In this document: piece after piece, positions 1,872 through 58,064 of the stretch
How the letters are laid out: each line of letters begins with the position of its first letter
Position numbering within the stretch: the stretch's first letter is position 1
Assembly: GCF_006345805.1 (NCBI RefSeq)
Contig: NC_042997.1
Span: 142,848,001-142,912,000 of the forward strand
Source of the DNA: Octopus sinensis
Taxonomy: Eukaryota
Length of the DNA: 64,000 nucleotides
Direction of reading: 5' to 3'
Made by a program: the position numbers and the translations under genes
Notes under the pieces: model-generated
What the model was told of the DNA's origin: nothing
Database searches by the model: none
The model's input: the letters and a program-made list of their open reading frames with translations, nothing else

Positions 1872-4362
1872 CTGTGGAGTGCTCGACCACTTGCATGTTA
1901 ATTTCACAAGCAGGCTGTTCCATTGACCAGATCAACTGGAACACTCATTGTCATAACCAACGGAGTGCTTATAATTATCAATACATGCACTCAAGTGTTA
2001 GAATTGGCAGCAGTTAAATTTTCTTTGTAGTTTCGGTTCAAATCCAGTCAATTTTGCCTTTCATCTTTACAGAGACAGTAAAATAATAGTTAAATAGCAG
2101 AGTGGCTTAGGGAATATAATCAACTATAGACACACAAAAACATGCACACACATTCATACACACATAAAAATATGTGGCCTTGTCCCTATATTAAGAATCA
2201 AAGGGAAAATCTGCCTAAGAATAGAGACCGCATTGTAATTTTTTCCCCCATCAATACTAGATAAACCACTTATATATAGATGTGTTTCTCATGCTACCAC
2301 CATTTGTGCCTTCGGCAATGGAAATTAACTATACTTTCATTAACATTCACTAATTATGTTATGTACAGTCTGAGCTGCTAAGTGAGACTTTTTGAAAGTG
2401 TGTTGTCTATTCAAGAAAACACACAGACACAAATTATGTACTGATATAATGAAAGAAAGAACTTTAAGATAATCCTTAGGAGATGGAAATAGCTAGCAAG
2501 ATATGCAGAAATGTTATAAAATAACAATTCTTTTGAAATGTGAAAAGAAAAGTAAAACATTTTAGACTACATAATAAAATATAGATGAAAAATCTCAGAA
2601 GAAAATCATAAATTTTATAAAGAGAAATATTGAAAAAGATATTAATTGGCGGCTAAATGCAGTGATTTTGTTCTCAAAGTGACTAGGATTTATTCAAATA
2701 GCTCAGAAATAGCTGTGTAATTAAGAAATATGCTTCCCAACCATGTGGTTTTGAGTTCAGCCCCACTCTGCAATACCTTGGAAAACTGTCTTCTATAGCC
2801 CATGGCTGACTAAAGCCTTGTAAGTGGATTAATAGATGGAAACTGAAAGAACCTTGCCATGTGTGTGTGTTTATTTCTACTCTAAAAATTTCTGAGCTAC
2901 AAATAGTGATGTTACTATCAGTTGCCCTTTCAACAAATCATCTGCCCTTCAACAACTTACAAAATAAGAGATCCCTTACTGTAAAAAGAAAGGCAACAGT
3001 TAGCAATAGATAGAGTATCTGGCTATAAAACAATCCCTCAATAATATATTCATCTAACTTGTGCTAGCTTTGAAAAACAGATGTAAAAGCAAATGAATTT
3101 ACCTAGCAGAATTTAAACCAGTAGAGGAAGAAAATAAATTTTTATTATAATTGCAGAAATTGGTGTTAATATTTGTATTTTACTAAATCTTATTATTACA
3201 TTTCGTTTTTGTATTTGGTTTGCAAGAATCTTTATGTGAATTTGTGTGTTGAAGCATATTTTATTGTGTCTGAGGAGAGTCATTCTCTTTTAGTGCCTTA
3301 TTAATTTAGCACACTCACCAGTTTGATTTCCACTTGTTTACTTATTTATTTATTTTTACTAAATAAGTGAAAATAAAGTAATAAATAAATAAATGTGTGG
3401 AAATCAGACTGGCAAGTGTGTTAAATTAATAAGGCACTAAAAGAGAATGGCTCTCCCCAGACACAATAAACTTATTACTACATATTTTGGAGATGTACTT
3501 TATCTATTTATCAATTTAAAACTACCTGCTCCTGGCCCTCGAGAGCTTTTAGCAGAGTTCATTCTAGTAGCAGCTTTCAGGCCATATCTCTTGTCTGAAG
3601 ATTATGTTCTCTTTTCATCTTACCAGTTTTTAAAGCCCTGAAAAGGGGGCATGAGTGAAGCCCTTCTTCTGCTGATTTAGCCATAACCCAAAAATATAAT
3701 TAACAAAAAACAAAGTGGGCTCTGTATAAAGCACTTGGGTGATAATACTAAACCAGGACGCAAATTAGGTCTTCCATCTATGATAGAGTTTATTCATTTT
3801 TTTGGTTGTTCGTTTCACCATAGATTGATGGGTTTGGATGGAGAATTATTTGAGGCAGGCTTTTACAGCTGGGTGCTCTTACTGTTGCCAACTGTTACTT
3901 CAAGTAAGGGGTTCCTTTATTGCACACAACATTGAAAACACAGAGGGAGCAGTCATAATGTCAACAAGGAATGTCAACATTAGCATTGCTTCATTCACAC
4001 AATAGCAAAGAATTGAATATAACTATTTACATACACACACACATGCACACATACACATGTAGACTTCTTGAAATTTCTGTCTACCAACACCTTTACATGG
4101 TATCGGTTAGCCCTGGGCTATACCAGAAGACACTTGCCCAAAATGCCATGCAGTGGAACTGAACACCTGAAACCCCTGGTAACAAGGTGAATCCTTAAAC
4201 CACACAGCCATACCTGCACCTAACCCTAACCCTAATTCACAGCTCTTAATTTTCTTCTTTTTCAGGCAGTATTTTTTTTTAAAAGACTCTCTTTGTGAAC
4301 TTGCCTTTCAACATTGAATATTCTGTATTTTTACTAACTGAATTTTTTTTGTGTTTTGATAG

Positions 4363-19527: not shown

Positions 19528-20755
19528 CAGGGTGCAATGAATAAATTATCATCTAAATTACATAAAAATATCCTGAAATACTAAAGAGTAAATTTATTCA
19601 ATAAAATCGCCATTGGCTTCAACCAAGGCCTCCAGACGACTTCGGAATCTGCAACTCTTCTGGGCTGTCTCCTAGTTAAAATTGGTGAATGCTGCCATAT
19701 TCCTTGCCTTCAGTTCATCTTTGGTGTTATAAGGTGTTTTGTTGATCTCTTGCTCAACTGCACCCCACACATAATAATCAAGGGAGTTGCACTCTGGGAA
19801 GTTAGGTGGCCAGATGTTAGGAGTGATGTGGTCGCAGAAATTGTCTGACAATCATGACTATGTTATCCTACTTGTGTGGCATGGTGCAGAGTCCCGGTGC
19901 CAGACATAGGGTCCTCCAGCAGCCACTCTCTTGACCCAGGGCAGCACTATCTCCTCCAGGCATTTGATGTAAGCCTCTGCGTTTAGTCTGAGGCTGTGTG
20001 GGAAGATGAATGGAGGCATAACAGCACCATCATTTGTGATCACTCCAAACACCATGATGTTGACTGGATGTTTGACTTTTATCACTCTCTGTACATGTTT
20101 TGGGGACACGACAAGCCAACGGTTGTTTTGTGTGTTCACTATCTGATCCAGGCAGAAATTTTTCTTGTCTGAGAAAAACTGAAGCATGTTCAGTTGGAGG
20201 GGGTGTTTGAGTTTGCTCAAAAGCTTTGTAGCATGGTCTTTCCTCTTGTCCATGGTGACTTGGGATAAAAATTAGGCCTTTTCTCATCTTGTTTGAGGAA
20301 TACTGAATGTCTTCATGCACTACCTGCCTGATAAGAAACTCAGACACTCCCATGTCCCTGGCGATGGACCTAGTTGACTTGGAGAGATCATTGTCAATCA
20401 TGGCCTGGATCTCACCAACAAATTCAGGAGTTCTTTTCTTATCAGTGTGAGTTTTCCGAGCTGCCATACTTTTGTAATCACCGTTAGACTTATCCAACTC
20501 TTTCCGAATCCTCTGCACTCTTCTCAGACTGATGCCCAAACACTCTGAAATGTTCGTATTGGAGCTTCCAGCACAAATGCCAAGCTGTAGAGCATGTCAT
20601 TTGCAAATTTCTGGCAGAGTGAATTGCCTCATGATGCAGTTTGTCTTGGATGATGCCCAACTGTCCCTACTATACTGTGTAGTCAACAAAAATCAAAATC
20701 AAACCATGTGTGAAATTAAAATATAAAATGGCAACAATTTACCCATTGCATCCTG
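19528..20755 (-). mobile_element. Tc1/mariner superfamily element, maT (DD37D)-type, full length but frameshifted
   Basis: TA|CAGGGTGCAATG ... CATTGCATCCTG|TA. Transposase remnants in minus ORFs 20030-20539 and 19858-20253: FFSDKKNF, MVFGVITNDG, HRDSAPCHTS, and downstream WPPNFPECNSLDYYVWG. Confidence 0.92.
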
Positions 20756-32119: not shown

Positions 32120-33042
32120 AAATATATCTGTATGTTTATGTATATAATATATTTATATATATACACACACCCACACTTACATAATATATATGTATATTTA
32201 TATATGTGTGTATATATATATATGTACACACACACAAATCACAAACACACAACTTTATATATGGTAGTATAGCTTCTAAACAGAGAAAGACATGTTCAAT
32301 AGAAATTGAATTTGTGACATTTTTTGTTTTTCAAAACCATAGTCTCCAGTAATTAAAACCAGGAAATTCACAGAAATTTTCCAATAATAATGGTGGTGTT
32401 GATCATAATAATGATAATAATAATAATAATAAATGTCCTGATGCAGTACCAGACAGTGGCTATGCTCTGATGCACTACCAGGCAATGGCTGTCATGGCTT
32501 CTGATCTTAACTGACTGGAAGTATTATCATGTATATTGTTTTGTCTTGGTGTAAAAAATGGGCTACAGCAAATATTCTGCTCAATACCACAGATTTGCAT
32601 GTCAGTTTTTTGACCATAACCAGTTAAGCATGTCCCTTAGTGGCTGAAGATATGTGCATCTCTGATCACGAGCAGAGGTAATGGGGGAGCATCATAGCTA
32701 TGTGTTGAGAGGAATTATTTGGGGTTTGGATAATTCACCTCTGGAAACATGGGTGTTTCATTCAATATCCTTAAACAACCCTTATTCAGGGACCTTCTGA
32801 GTAGGATGGGCTACATGACCTGAAGAAAATTCTAACTGGGCCCCACTTGCAAGGTCATGTGCTGTTTATCTTGGTATGAGATCACCATGTTGTACACATT
32901 GTGATGCATGTACCTGGTGTATAATTATCAGACAGGCAGTCATGATGAGTATACTAGGCTTCATATATTTTACCCCAGTGTCACTTTGATGGCATGCACT
33001 GCCCTCTCACTCAATAATAATAATAACAATAACAATAATAAT

Positions 33043-37122: not shown

Positions 37123-37157
<35 letters not shown>

Positions 37158-37289
37158 AATTAGAGAAAAACCACAATTATGCAATTCAATGATAGACATA
37201 AACCAAATCATAAATAAAATATATTTTAAAACATATAACTAGATCACCAAAAATGCAAAAATGAATAAACAATATATAATATGTAAAAA

Positions 37290-37368
37290 GACTATGTACA
37301 TTTCATGGCTATAATTTAAATTTAATCAAAAAACAATTCAATTTAAAATTATAGTCACTCCTCAGGTC
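37290..37368 (-). ncRNA. Hammerhead ribozyme motif (left arm, minus strand)
   Basis: gac-CTGAGGA-[gtgactataattt...aaattatagccat]-GAAAT-gtac-ATA-gtc. Confidence 0.75.
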
Positions 37369-37476
37369 AACAATAATAGTTAAATAAATAAGCAAATAGA
37401 ATTAAACAATCATGATTTTATTTCTTTAAGAAATATTGTTTAATTCTATTTGCTTATTTATTTAACTATTACTGTT

Positions 37477-37578
37477 GACCTGAGGAGTGACTATAATTTT
37501 AAATTGAATTGTTTTTCGATTAAATTTAAATTTAATTGCAATTCGAATTTAAATTATAGCCATGAAACGTATGTAGTC
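37477..37578 (+). ncRNA. Hammerhead ribozyme motif (type I, minimal stem III)
   Basis: gac-CTGAGGA-[gtgactataattt...aaattatagccat]-GAAAC-gtat-GTA-gtc. Confidence 0.8.
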
Positions 37579-37847
37579 TTTTTACATATTATATATTGTT
37601 TATTCATTTTTGTATTTTTTGTGATCTAGTTATATGTTTTAAAATATATTTTATTTTTTATTTATGATTTGGTTTATGTCTATCATTGTTTGAATTGCAT
37701 AAGAGTGGCTTTTCTCTAATTTATATATATTATATATTTATATTGTGAAATTTGATTTAATACTAAATTGAATTTTTCCCTGTAAATTTTGAGTTATACT
37801 CCCTATTATTATTATTATTAATATTACTTTATATATATATATATATA

Positions 37848-38127
37848 TAATAGTAGGGAATATAAAATTCCAAACTAATTGAGAAAAATTCAGTTTAGCC
37901 ATGCTAAATCAAATTTCACAAAATATAATATATATATATAATTAAGAGAAATAGCCTCTATTAAGTAATTCAATTGAGAATGAAAGATATATATATTAAA
38001 TCATATAGAAAAAATTTTAATATATTATAATAAATATTATTCTAATTTAATCACTAATTTAAATAAACTTTAGAATGATATTTATTATAATATTTTTAAA
38101 TTTTTCCTATATGATTTAATATATATG
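37848..38127 (-). mobile_element. Related fold-back element, deleted derivative without a hammerhead
   Basis: Inverted copy of the family tail at 37848-37925, terminus attaagagaaatagcc, inverted repeat ~37988-38046 / 38071-38127. Confidence 0.6.
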
Positions 38128-43463: not shown

Positions 43464-45976
43464 ATTATTATTATTCTTATTCTTCTTATTATTATTATTA
43501 TAACCACCACTACTTTTCATTAATATGTTTCCTACATCATCAGTAGAATCTGACAGAATCTGAAATAGCAAAGACCGTTAAATTCCAGTTATGGGATTAA
43601 TTTCTCTGAGAAAGGGACTCAAAGAAGATCTCAAAGAGTACATAAGTTTGATTGTTAAATTTTCTAACCACATTTCTGTATAATTCTATGTTAACACAAT
43701 TTTGTTTTTATGTTGATAATAGGTTTTTTTTTCTTTACATCAAAGATCAAAATGCTAAATCATTATCATCATCTTCCTTCTTTATATATATTCTGAAATT
43801 AAGGCCGCAAGCTGGCAGAATTCTTAGCATGCCAGGTAAGATGCCTAGTGGCATTTTGTCCATTTTTACATTCTGGGTTCAAATTCTACTAAGGTTGACA
43901 TTGCCTTTTATTTGAGCACTGGGGTCAATGTAATCAACTTAGCCCCTCCCCAGTGCCAAAATTTGAAACCAATAAATATTCTGAAATTGGACAATATTAG
44001 TACAAGACTTTTTTTTCTAAAGTCCTAGCTGGGAGATACAGAAAAAGAGAGAGATTGTAGTGCGAGTAATATTAATTTCTCTGAAATGATTACAATATAT
44101 ATTACTGATTACTTTGACTATTTACTCCTCTCTCTCTCCCCCCTATTATATCACAGTTATTTATTTTACTGATTCCCTGATGATGTATGAAATATTTACT
44201 GTGAAAGAAACTCTAACTGAAAATCAAAAGGTTTTTTTTTTCCAGTGTGGTTTAACCCAAATATCCAGGTTTTATCTAGATATTTAGCAATCTAAGAAAA
44301 TTATGAAGGGTTTAATTTTGAAATACATGGGCTGGAATTATTTTCAAATTTAGAAAATTTTTAGTGGATAGAAATGGAATTTTTATTCATTTTATTTGTA
44401 ATTTTTAAAAAATATATCTTGTAACAATTATTATTAAAACTTAACTATTTTTCTTATGCATAATAGTTTTGATTGTTTCTTTGGGTTTTGTTTTTCCCCC
44501 CTTGTAAAAACATTTGAAAAATTTGATAATGTTCAAAGCTTGGTCATCTTACTAATCACTATTCATACCTCTGAATAGAATTCTCTAGATTCTGAATTTT
44601 TCTGGCAAATTATATGTAAAACAATGAAATCACTTAAGAAAATAAGATTCAATTTGTTTTCCCAGCTAAGAACTATACACTAGAAGCAAGCACATTCTAG
44701 AATCACATTGTTATATTCCATATTACGACAGTAAATTGATTTTCACAAACTATGAATAAATGAAATCGCTAACAAACACAGACAAACATGAAAGAATGAA
44801 ATTTTTGTTTTCTATAAGATTCTTATATATTTCTAAATAAAAATATTAATTCTTTTTAAATTCAAATTGTATATATATATATAGTATAGGAGAAGAGTAG
44901 ATATATATAGTATGATCTACTGAGAGTAGATATAATATATATATATACCGATATAGATAGATAGAGAGATATATATAATATAGATACAGATATATATTAT
45001 AAGTAGATTATGATAGTATATCATAGAGATAGACAGATAGATTATAGATATATAGATAGATACAGATAATAGATAGATATAGATATGAGAGGATTATATA
45101 GAGAGGAGACAGAATAGTATAGTAAGAGAGAGATAGATGAGATATCAGAGATATATATATATATAGAGATATATAAGATAGAGAGAGATATAGAGAAGAT
45201 ATGATATATATAGAATAGATAAGGAACAGAATAGATAGAGATATATATAGGATAGAGATAGGAGATTATATAGTAGATACAGATATAGATAGAGATATAT
45301 ATAGATACAGAATATATATATATAATATATAGAGATATATATATATATACGAGATAGATATATATATATATATATAGATATAGATATATATAGAGAGATA
45401 TATAGGATAGATATATATATATAGATATAGAAGATGATAGTATATATATTATAGATAATAGAATATATATAGTAGATAGATATAGATATAGAGAGATATA
45501 GATATATAGATATATATATAATATATAGAGGATAGAGAATACAGTATAAGTATATATATATTATATAGATATAGATATAATATATATACAGATTATATAT
45601 ATATATATATATAGATATATAGATATATATATATATAAGATATATAGATATATATATATATAGATTAAAGATATATAGATATATAGATATAGTATATATA
45701 TTATACAGATATATAGATTATATATATACAGATAAAGATATATATAGATATATATATATATATATATATAGATATATATATTACAGATATTATATAGATG
45801 ATAGAGATATATATATATACCAGATATATATATATACAGATATATATATAAGATATATATATATATATCTATATATACAGATATATATATATTGATGATA
45901 TATATATATATAGATATATATAGATATATATACAGATAGATATATTATATATATAGATATAATATATATATATACC

Positions 45977-46012
<36 letters not shown>

Positions 46013-46546
46013 TATAATATATATATAATATATATTACAGATATATATGATATTATATTATATATATATATACAGAGAGAGATATATTATATATAATATA
46101 TATAAGATTAGATAGATGATATCTATATAGAATATATATAGATACAGACTATATATTAGTATAGATATATATATATATATATATATGATATATATATACC
46201 AGATCTATATATATATATAGAGATAGATATATAATAGATATATATACAGGAGATGATAGATACGATATATAGATAACAGATAGTTATATATATATGATAT
46301 ATATATATATGAGATACAGATGATTATATACATATATAGATATATATATACAGATATATATATCTATACAGTCGATATATTAAGATATATATATATATAT
46401 ATATATACAGTATATAGTATAGATTATAATAATATTAATATATATGATATAATATATACAGATAATATATATATATTATATATATATAGATATATATATA
46501 TATACAGCTATATATATATATAATACACAGATATATTCTAATATAC

Positions 46547-46582
<36 letters not shown>

Positions 46583-46824
46583 ACCGATATATATATATAT
46601 TATATATATATCAGATAATATATATATATATATATATTATAGATTATATATATATATATATACAGATATATATATATATATATATCTATATATATATATA
46701 CAGATATATAATATTATATATATATAGATATACAGATATATATATTATATATATATATATATACAGATATATATATATATATACGATTATATATATATCT
46801 ATATATATATATATATATATATAC

Positions 46825-46891
<67 letters not shown>

Positions 46892-46965
46892 TATATATAT
46901 ATTACGATATATATAATATTATATAATTTATATAATATATACAGATATAATATATATATATATAG

Positions 46966-46997
<32 letters not shown>

Positions 46998-47162
46998 TAT
47001 ATACCCGATATATATACAGAGATATATATATATTATATATATATATATATACCCGATATATATACAGATATAATATATATAATATATATATATTATATAT
47101 ATACAGATATATATTATATATATATATATTATAGATATATATATATATATTATATATATATC

Positions 47163-47193
<31 letters not shown>

Positions 47194-47469
47194 TATATAT
47201 ATATATTATATATATATATATAGATATTATATATATAGATATAACAGATATATATATATATATATATATCTCTATATATATATATACAGATTCTATATAT
47301 AATTATATATATATATAATATATATTACAGATATATATATATATACTATATATATACAGATATTATATATATATATATATATTATATATATATATTATTA
47401 TATCTATATATAATATATAATACAGATATATATATACATATATATTATTAAATATATATATATATTAAA

Positions 47470-48066
47470 TAGAGACAAAACCACTATTAGGGAAATCAAA
47501 CAATGAAAACTTAAGCCAATACATAAGATTATTTATTATATTATTTAAATATAACAAAATTATTAAAAAAATATAATTAATATCACACTATGATCGTTTC
47601 ATGCCGCGAACTTCTTCAAATTTTGAGTCGCAGTCATTCATCAGGTGGTTTAAATATCTAAAATATAATCAATATTTTTAAGATATAAATAATATATATA
47701 ATATAAATTTTACTTATAATAACTCTATTATTAAATATGATTACATCGAAATCGACTATAATGTAAATATTAACTTTAATTTATAAGGTAGAAAACCCAT
47801 AATCTAATATCATATTAGTCTATATCTAATTAAATAAATATTTAAAATGACTAATTAATATATTAATGATTTTTTTTTATAATTTTGTTATATATTTAAA
47901 TAATATAAATTAAATAATCTTATGCATTGGCTTAAGTTTTTCATTGTTTGATTTGCCTAATAGTGGTTTGTCTCTAATTAATGAATATAATAAAATTTTA
48001 CTATAAAAAGGATTCAATCCAAATCTGATTTTCCCTGTAAGTTTGGATTTATTCCCTAATATTTAT

Positions 48067-48070
<4 letters not shown>
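47470..48070. mobile_element. Fold-back hammerhead element inside the (TA)n satellite
   Basis: Arms ~47470-47582 and ~47860-47976 (tagagacaaaaccactattagg / cctaatagtggtttgtctcta). Tail with ttttccctgtaa...tccct as in 37740-37815. Confidence 0.8.
47586..47647 (-). ncRNA. Hammerhead ribozyme motif
   Basis: cac-CTGATGA-[atgactgcga...tcgcggcat]-GAAAC-gatc-ATA-gtg. One stem III mismatch, consistent with CpG decay of ACGATCGT. Confidence 0.75.
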
Positions 48071-48151
<81 letters not shown>

Positions 48152-48292
48152 AATATATATATATATATGTATACTATATTATATCATATATAAAGATAGT
48201 TTATAATGATATATATATGTATAAAGAATATATATATATTCATATATATACATAACAATATTATATGCATAAAGATATTACATATATGTATA

Positions 48293-48344
<52 letters not shown>

Positions 48345-48351
48345 AGTATAT

Positions 48352-48382
<31 letters not shown>

Positions 48383-48396
48383 TATTATATATTATA

Positions 48397-48461
<65 letters not shown>

Positions 48462-48922
48462 ATATACATATATATATATATATATATAAGATATACATAT
48501 ATAATATATATATATATCTATATATAGATATATACTATATATATAATATATATTATATATATTATATATATATAAAGATCTCCTTTCTATATATATATAT
48601 ATATATATATAAGATATACATATATATATATATATATATAAAGAATACATATATATATATAATATATATAATATCTATAAAGATATTATATATAAAGATA
48701 TATATATATAAAGATATTACATTATATATATAGTATATATTTAAAGAATACATAATATATATATATACATATAATATATATTTAAAGATATCATATATAA
48801 ATACATATATATGTATATATATTGAATATATATAATATATATGTATATATTATATTGATTATATATTAATATATAGATATATATAATTAATATATATTAT
48901 ATATATATATATATTAATATAT

Positions 48923-48953
<31 letters not shown>

Positions 48954-48977
48954 TATATATATATAATTATATATATA

Positions 48978-49051
<74 letters not shown>

Positions 49052-56328: not shown

Positions 56329-58064
56329 CAAGGATCGGCTGAAAAGTTCATATGCTGGAGCATTTGAGGTGCAGGAGTGGCTGCATGGTAAGTAGCTTGT
56401 TTACCAACCACATGGTTCCGGGTTCAGTCCCACTGTGTGGCACCTTGGGCAAGTGTCTTCTACTATAGCCTCGGGCCGACCAAAGCCTTGAGTGGATTTG
56501 GTAGATGAAAACTGAAAGAAGCACGTCATATATATGTATATATACATATATATATATATGTATGTATATATATATATGCGTGTGTGTGTTTGTGTGTCTG
56601 TGTCTGTCCCTCTAGCATTGCTTGACAACCGATGCTGGTGTGTTTATGTCCCCGTTACTTAGCGGTTTGGCAAAAGAGACCGATAGAATAAGTACTGGGC
56701 TTACAAAAGAATAAGTCCCGGGGTCAAGTTGCTCGATTAAAGGCGGTGCTCCAGCATGGCCGCAGTCAAATGACTGAAACAAGTAAAAGAGAAAAAGAGA
56801 GTAAGAGTGACCAAGATGCTCTCACGGAATGTGATCAAATGAGGTTTATTTTTCAACTTAGTCCCTCTTGCAGTCCACAGAGTTCTTCCATCAGTATTGC
56901 AGTGCTTGAATCCCATTGGTGAAGAAGCTTTCATCCTGTTTATTAAAAAAGTCATCAACAGCAGATATGATGTCATCATCATTGTGATACTGGTTCCCAG
57001 CCAAGGGTTTTTTTTTTCATTTGAGAGAACAGACGATAGACATATGGAGCCAAATCAGGAGAACAGAGAGGATGATTAACCAGTTCAAAGCTACAGTCAT
57101 GCACAGCAGCCATTGATATGAAGGACTTGTGTGCTGGAACACTATCCCGATGAAACGAGACCCCTTTCATCAGTTTTTTTTGAGTGTTTGGTCTTGATAG
57201 CCTTTCATAACTGCTCCAGTAAGTTGGCATAAAACTCTCCATTGAGAGTGTGGCTCTTTTGAAGATCGTCAGTAAACACAATGCCTTTTGCATCCCAAAA
57301 AACTGAGGCCATGATGAAACTACAGATGAAACAAGCTTGGCTATGTTTGGAGCATTTGAGGAGGGGTGTTTCCATTGCATGGACTGTCTCTTTGTCTCTG
57401 GCTCAAAAATGATGAAGCCAACACTCATTCTGGGTTAGAAAATGTTCAAGGAAACCAGCTGGATCTGCTTCAAACAACGTCAGATTTTTGTGTGATTTGA
57501 TCAGCCTAGTGCATTTTTGATCAAGTATCAGAAAACATGGCATCCACCAAGCAAAAAAATCTTCATTATGCCAAGTCCATTGTGCAGAATATTCTCCACT
57601 CTCAATAGTATTGGCTATTTGATTTCTATTCAAATGCCTGTCAGCCATCACCATGTGGTGAACATGATCAATGTTTTCAAAAGTGGTGGTAATTGCAGGA
57701 CATACAGAACTTAGGACACACTCAAGACTCTTCCTGCCCCTCCTAAATTCAGCTGCCCACTTTTGCACTGTTGATAAATCTGGAGCATCATTGCCTAATG
57801 TAGCAACCATGTCAGCATGAATATCCTTTGCGGTTAAACCCTATTTCTGCAGGTACAGCACCATGATCCCAAATTTTGTCTATTTTCAAGAGAAGTCACT
57901 ACTATTTACTTCTGAAGTCTTCTCTCAACAGTCAGGTGTCAGTTTACTTGGAAAGAAAACAATAATGCAGTTATTAATAAGAGTTGTAATTGATGCATAC
58001 AAGATTTCACAACTCTAGCATCACTTCTTCATAGTCAAACTATAAACTTTTCAACTCACCCTCA
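56329..58064 (-). mobile_element. Degenerate mariner (DD34D, probably irritans-like) with nested SINE
   Basis: TA-flanked TIRs caaggatcggctgaaaagtt / aacttttcaactcaccctca. Motifs WAAEFRRGR.SLE, WMPCFL (WVP.L), LTQNECWLHHFEPETKRQSMQW, FHRDSVPAH, HPLCSPDLAP. Confidence 0.9.
56368..56806 (+). mobile_element. Main SINE family, young full-length copy nested in the mariner
   Basis: Colinear with 7948-8345 and retains CpGs. Confidence 0.9.

Follow-up and report, generated by a model that had tools for sequence, protein, structure and literature searches.

An inverted pair of hammerhead-bearing Penelope-like element 3' ends in Octopus sinensis and its probable origin as a one-off insertion

The window analysed here, the whole stretch of 64,000 nucleotides from Octopus sinensis, contains a 565-bp fold-back at 37157-37720, both arms of which hold a type I hammerhead core. 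The locus raises the question of how two ribozyme motifs came to lie in a single palindrome, and whether this palindrome moves as a unit or arose once. A sequence-only reading had described it as a long hairpin with one ribozyme core per arm, and this observation was confirmed. We give a probability of about 0.9 to the reading that the palindrome consists of two 5'-truncated, hammerhead-bearing 3' ends of a Penelope-like element (PLE), placed head-to-head at a 6-nt microhomology beside a (TA)n run and likely formed in one insertion. It has likely decayed in place since then. The features of the locus are as follows.

37124..37156, no strand: (TA)n stretch bordering the left arm, likely the target of the insertion; most short ends of other copies, among 25 listed, also enter (TA)n
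37157..37410, minus: left arm, an inverted 5'-truncated copy of the PLE 3' end, stopping at the 'short' site without a tail
37290..37368, minus: left-arm type I hammerhead motif, stem III ATGTACAT, predicted cut after 37293
37368-66, minus: stem I GAC from the descriptor scan
37365-59, minus: core CTGAGGA, followed by a 54-nt stem II region
37304-01, minus: GAAA, followed by stem III ATGTACAT at 37301-37294
37405..37410, no strand: junction, 6-nt microhomology AACAAT, matching the reverse complement of ATTGTT at 37435-37440
37411..37434, plus: spacer between the arms, a 24-nt loop of native family sequence, part of the direct copy
37405..37804, plus: direct 5'-truncated copy of the PLE 3' end, stopping at the 'long' site
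37435-37720, plus: right arm
37477..37578, plus: right-arm type I hammerhead motif, stem III ACGTATGT, predicted cut after A37575
37477-79, plus: stem I GAC, with GTC at 37576-78
37480-86, plus: core CTGAGGA, followed by a 77-nt stem II region
37564-67, plus: GAAA, followed by stem III ACGTATGT at 37567-74
about 37722-37804, plus: tail of the right arm, about 80 nt, followed by an (ATT)n run
37805..37850, no strand: (ATT)n and then (TA)n at the long end; long ends elsewhere, among 25 listed, mostly enter (ATT)n or (TA)n
37846..38037, minus: a further 3' end, tailed and more diverged, from a related subfamily, about 77% identical to family copies

The two arms show 10 mismatches in 252 aligned bases, and the left arm carries three deletions of 4, 7 and 23 nt relative to the right arm. 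A single hairpin of -322.4 kcal/mol is predicted for the whole palindrome, which gives z = -45 relative to 100 shuffles. Each arm has the layout GAC, CTGAGGA, long stem II, GAAA, 8-nt stem III, A and GTC, and the two motifs are on opposite strands, facing away from one another. The AACAAT at the junction was found to be native family sequence when the family copies L006, L011 and L012 were compared with the window. No target-site duplication was discernible in the sequence at the left (TA)n end (37124..37156). The related-subfamily 3' end at 37846-38037 sits tail-to-tail with the right arm over the same (TA)n, an arrangement which suggests repeated insertion into one microsatellite.

Scanning both strands of the 64-kb window with the descriptor gave three matches, the two hammerheads of the palindrome and a loose one at 32644 on the plus strand. 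The start of the latter resembles a match in L012, and it is probably a common repeat or a chance match. Comparison with the Rfam hammerhead models, a check proposed along with the sequence-only reading, returned no hammerhead at the locus (E<=10 over 37150-37820; E<=1 over 35-40 kb), so the hammerhead assignment rests on the descriptor and on conservation and not on a covariance model. We infer that the Rfam miss is owed to the stem II of 54-77 nt. The commonest stem III was ACGTACGT, found in 26 of 64 descriptor matches in the fetched loci, a set which includes other families, a few duplicates and chance matches. Both window variants, ACGTATGT and ATGTACAT, are CpG-type changes of ACGTACGT. 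The identification of the motifs as type I hammerheads with palindromic stem III stands. The core was intact in 86 of 105 copies aligned by MAFFT and in 22 of 28 copies picked by upstream DNA only. The proposed comparison of core columns with the other columns also came out in favor of the ribozyme: conservation was 0.977 in the core and 0.941 in other non-CpG columns (permutation p 0.026, 28 copies). Stem I was GAC/GTC in 64 of the 105 copies and AAC/GTT in 18, with mixed forms in 2+2, which represents one subfamily split. Stem I thus covaries between subfamilies, and related elements show additional stem I pairs. Core conservation together with stem I covariation speaks for selection acting on the source elements rather than on the window locus. 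Hammerhead-like motifs of other families were present in L040, L157, L160, L113, L067 and L018, several of them with palindromic stem III (ACGATCGT, ACCGATTGGT, ACCAATTGGT, ACAGCTGT).

The genome (2.72 Gb) was searched with the arm, and the best 40 of 2414 candidates were scored, all of them 89-100% identical. Among the 52 matches of the scored candidates, a full inverted second arm was found in the window only. Core matches at <=1 mismatch numbered 132 genome-wide and 0 in the control. The copies reach 5' for variable distances and possess two alternative 3' ends, a short one which leads into (TA)n and a long one which continues for about 80 nt further; the 132 distinct 3' ends comprised 75 short and 57 long. 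In four single copies (L104, L106, L066 and L107) reverse transcriptase (RT), endonuclease (EN), a long AT-rich 3' region and the arm are collinear. RT motifs (IDIDNYY, MGAPDS, LYRDD) and an EN with YIGS were read in natural open frames. No uninterrupted ORF was found among the 30 loci examined, the longest frame being 310 aa. The ORF region measures about 2.5 kb in L106 and the 3' region about 2.3-2.4 kb in L063 and L064, which gives an element of about 5 kb. Two homologues of 803 and 786 aa were obtained among 8000 scored candidates. Atlas neighbours score 0.94, with RVT_1 in 13% and GIY-YIG in 32% of the members. Pfam (hmmscan) gave no RT or GIY-YIG match for any of four family frames or for the two homologues, and a PDB search gave nothing under E 1. 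The locus is PLE-derived, as had been supposed from the sequence: the arm is the 3' end of an RT- and EN-bearing Penelope-like element. For the same reason the suggestion of a coding-less derivative family reduced to inverted termini could not be upheld, since that element is an ordinary one.

A sister-subfamily copy, L108 (oriented 3349-3700; G000:C10:56.04 Mb), shows the complete canonical arrangement, with an inverted short end, then a direct end with tail, and then the start of the ORF about 80 nt later. A pLTR upstream of the ORF was seen in this copy and not in the other 4 ORF-start regions listed. In L149, two same-strand tailed 3' ends with hammerheads (G000:C28:10250376 and 10252094) lie 1.7 kb apart, and no family sequence was detected between them. 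A GIY-YIG-like frame in L055 (2630-3119, minus strand; E 0.011) was considered as the family EN and rejected, as it matched its own locus only and belongs to another element. It has two cysteines within the motif and represents a different PLE clade.

How such an inverted pair is made was addressed with the other head-to-head junctions of the family. In 185 loci 44 distinct junctions were found, and 4 added by hand brought the number to 48. Exclusion of two segmental duplicates (L151, L152) and of L006, which belongs to another subfamily, left 45. No scorable end pair was available in 23 of the 45. Among the 22 junctions with both ends scorable, 18 combined a long and a short end, 3 were short+short and 1 was long+long. 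The fraction of mixed pairs expected from the unpaired ends (51 short, 39 long) is 0.49, and the excess of long+short pairs is significant (18/22, binomial p = 0.0016). The tail was on the arm reaching less far 5' in 9 of the 18 long+short pairs. In L008, L071 and L165 the arms are so short that only a tailed arm would be detectable; without these three, 15 of 19 pairs were long+short, with the tail on the 5'-shorter arm in 6 of 15. An arm which carries the tail and is also the 5'-shorter one was not copied from its partner. The long+short excess and the tails on shorter arms together argue for two separately primed cDNAs joined by microhomology, and we infer two primings, one per target strand. 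Under this scheme, the endonuclease of the element would nick both strands of the (TA)n target, and each nick would prime reverse transcription, which would begin at the long (tailed) start site in one case and at the short site in the other. Both cDNAs would halt early, their 3' ends would anneal at AACAAT/ATTGTT and the gaps would be filled in. The hammerheads come with the 3' terminal repeat of the parent, from which they are inherited.

A fold-back origin is the strongest competitor, though an unlikely one in our judgement. In that case self-priming at AACAAT/ATTGTT would let a single truncated cDNA, or else an antisense template, be copied back on itself; such self-priming has been proposed for PLE palindromes (PMC3846280). 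The window locus taken alone fits this equally well, with its breakpoints about 30 nt apart, the tailed arm being the longer one and a 6-nt microhomology at the junction, and a few other junctions (L022, L126, L123, L148) are also near-centred. However, for most junctions the distance between the breakpoints runs from hundreds to thousands of bases, self-copying cannot produce the 9 of 18 pairs with the tail on the shorter arm, and the recurrent stop of the second arm at the short site is left unexplained. Divergence is uninformative between the two explanations, as the arms are 4.0% apart and the nearest other copy is at 3.9-4.0% (median 7.5-7.7%). These distances suggest an old insertion without conversion.

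The preferred reading of two primings is compatible with the biochemistry of PLEs in part. A PLE protein studied in vitro cuts both strands and extends them, with reverse transcription starting at two sites bracketing the tail (PMC11167929). The start site showed no strand difference in that system, which counts against two primings (PMC11167929). The making of inverted, one-side-tailed PLE insertions is treated as an open question in PMC8557442 and PMC11167929. We tentatively propose, at somewhat below even odds, that inverted PLE insertions record two-ended priming by a single complex, perhaps dimeric on one RNA molecule, which would use the tailed start site on one target strand and the internal start site on the other, the two cDNAs then being joined by microhomology. 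If true, two-ended priming would account for PLE insertions that are head-to-head in polarity and tailed on one side, with no antisense template needed. A literature search on twin priming and Penelope did not find two-ended priming for PLEs.

The effect of the palindrome on its ribozymes was modelled. Forcing the hammerhead fold is predicted to cost 85-93 kcal/mol in the palindrome compared with 11-12 kcal/mol in a single arm, in agreement with the earlier expectation that the hairpin would outcompete the ribozyme. Even for one arm alone the hammerhead is not the predicted lowest-energy fold. The stem III self-duplex is calculated at -6.2 and -7.0 kcal/mol for the window variants as against -9.8 kcal/mol, both palindromes thus being weakened, and the locus has no same-sense hammerhead partner in cis. 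Whichever strand is transcribed, the antisense comes ahead of the sense, so folding of the ribozymes is predicted to fail; read-through RNA from either strand is predicted to zipper into dsRNA with cleavage switched off. Co-option of the locus, be it as a substrate (dsRNA, siRNA or editing) or as a regulated ribozyme switch, is very improbable. A transcript would be expected to give a near-perfect duplex of about 250 bp, and PLE-derived small RNAs are reported from a rotifer (PMC3846280), but the deletions in the arms, the CpG decay and the weakening of both stem III palindromes give no sign of selection at the locus. No surrounding host gene was identified in the ORF list, which is blind to short exons.

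The possibility that the 565-bp palindrome is itself the mobile unit of a non-autonomous family, of MITE-like or retrozyme-like kind, was examined by asking for fixed boundaries across copies, as had been proposed with the sequence-only reading. It could draw on the two intact-looking cores and on at least five head-to-head structures with a hammerhead in each arm. Against it, a genome search with the 28-mer across the junction, allowing up to 2 mismatches, gave a single occurrence, the breakpoint pairs differ in 45 of 45 head-to-head junctions (breakpoints being BLAST ends and not base-exact), and decay has proceeded separately in the two arms. Of the 45 junctions, 5 had hammerhead sequence on both sides, the window locus and four others. 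Among 100 listed of the 132 core matches, opposite-strand core neighbours were separated by 126 (the window locus), 239, 568 and 3934 bp. The palindrome is a one-off and not a mobile unit; the idea of a mobile palindromic unit is thereby set aside, the reading as a 'coding-less derivative' family is not supported, and we consider movement as a 565-bp unit very improbable. Palindromes can also arise as read artefacts. An assembly or long-read fold-back artefact is just as improbable here: no contig bridges the junction among the best 32 of 7130 pieces, the contigs from runs X1, X2, X4 and X13 being short and mostly from other copies, but the arms differ by 10 substitutions, CpG-type ones included, and by 3 deletions, they stop at the two natural 3' ends of the family, and the architecture recurs genome-wide.

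Other repeats were observed in the window and among the copies. A second head-to-head relic, of a sister subfamily and again long+short, is situated at 47440-48075 and is about 85-92% like L006, L096 and L098. Its minus arm has the short end and a hammerhead at 47647-47586 with CAC/GTG stem I, CTGATGA, a short stem II and stem III ACGATCAT; its plus arm possesses the tail, and the ribozyme is absent. Positions 44500-49050 hold (TA)n-type satellite over several kb, very rich in AT (GC 12-21%). Two minus-strand open frames, 20030-20596 and 56979-57434, resemble mariner/Tc1 transposase remnants. In L150-L152 (G000:C9:22.29-22.41 Mb) one inverted insertion is present three times at 50-60 kb spacing, likely through segmental duplication.

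The family was placed among PLEs by its motifs. The Hydra clade is defined by RWK, DKT, a CxCx5C linker, loss of CCHH, CxxC and CxH, (TA)n targets and canonical hammerheads (PMC8557442). SDKT, with DKT replacing DKG, was read in L107 and L108, and both have KWK at the RWK position, while the homologues P0001 and P0002 have RWR and RWK. Among the five family frames aligned, CxCx5C was present in three, with one substituted and one frameshifted; no cysteines were found between GIY and YIG; and CxH was present in all five, with the second C of CxxC invariant. CxxC and CxH flank a conserved E and N. A (TA)n insertion preference was seen at the window locus and at the ends of other copies. By motifs compared by eye, the family would be a PLE with Hydra-clade motifs which reads KWK for RWK. 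Assignment to the Neptune clade was dropped against the clade definitions of PMC8557442.

With the Hydra-clade PLEs Penelope-13_HM, Penelope-2_NV and Hydra-1_Obim it shares the C-terminal GIY-YIG EN without CCHH, DKT, the CxCx5C linker, CxxC, CxH, the (TA)n target and a 3' hammerhead, and the core and stem II start of Penelope-2_NV resemble those of the window family (PMC8557442). It differs from the clade in its length of about 5 kb with a 3' region of ~2.3-2.4 kb, where Hydra elements are 'generally <3 kb', in a stem II region of 77 nt as against stems of 3-7 bp with short loops, in KWK replacing RWK and in Asn-rich runs in the ORF (PMC8557442). The supplement of PMC8557442 describes a 5'-truncated inverted copy of Penelope-13_HM with hammerheads on both strands, and lists Hydra-1_Obim of Octopus bimaculoides as a Hydra-clade PLE with a hammerhead. 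Compared by eye, the Hydra-1_Obim hammerhead differs and belongs to another family than that of the window (PMC8557442). The earlier note was aware of no description of the family in cephalopods. None of the window family was found in the literature searched, and a Hydra-clade hammerhead PLE is listed for Octopus bimaculoides.

Comparable structures are known from other animals. In Schistosoma mansoni, dual minimal hammerheads of PLEs lie on opposite strands about 100-700 bp apart and are ascribed to truncated PLEs; stem III is likewise palindromic, and a dimer model was put forward (PMC4209133). There the PLE family is a different one; the window locus has a stem III that is palindromic over all 8 nt, and a very long stem II. 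The Schistosoma hammerheads showed low activity in vitro, dimers included (PMC4209133). In Adineta vaga, Penelopes show head-to-head inverted pLTRs, one of them tailed, with microhomology at the 5' junctions as here; Asn-rich ORF inserts and, in Pen1, a long spacer before the 3' pLTR are also shared (PMC3846280). Inverted pLTRs in PLE insertions, mentioned in the earlier note, are on record. The Adineta vaga authors favour self-priming (PMC3846280), yet half of the long+short pairs of the window family are not explained by a self-copying cDNA. Non-LTR retrozymes are non-coding and PLE-derived with a type I hammerhead, as is the locus described here (bioRxiv 10.64898/2026.07.22.740005). They consist of direct tandem repeats with same-strand ribozymes, and identity with them fails, as the window locus is a single inverted pair instead of direct tandem units.

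Penelope-like elements have been counted in Octopus vulgaris, in a paper whose main text is without hammerheads (PMC13282606). In the literature searched on octopus or cephalopod hammerheads and Penelope, no description of the family was found; it may already be present in repeat libraries or paper supplements. For PLEs, both inverted ends with 5' truncation and hammerhead pairs on opposite strands have been published before, a Hydra family included, and the window palindrome itself is an ordinary relic, a fresh example of an established pattern. The Hydra-type PLE family to which it belongs is abundant, has a 3' region of unusual length and a hammerhead with a long stem II, and is missed by both Rfam and Pfam. 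Head-to-head PLE relics of this kind would be sources of dsRNA if transcribed. The large family makes two-ended priming countable and so provides a test of it, and the pairing of long with short ends can be put to the existing in vitro PLE system as a concrete prediction.
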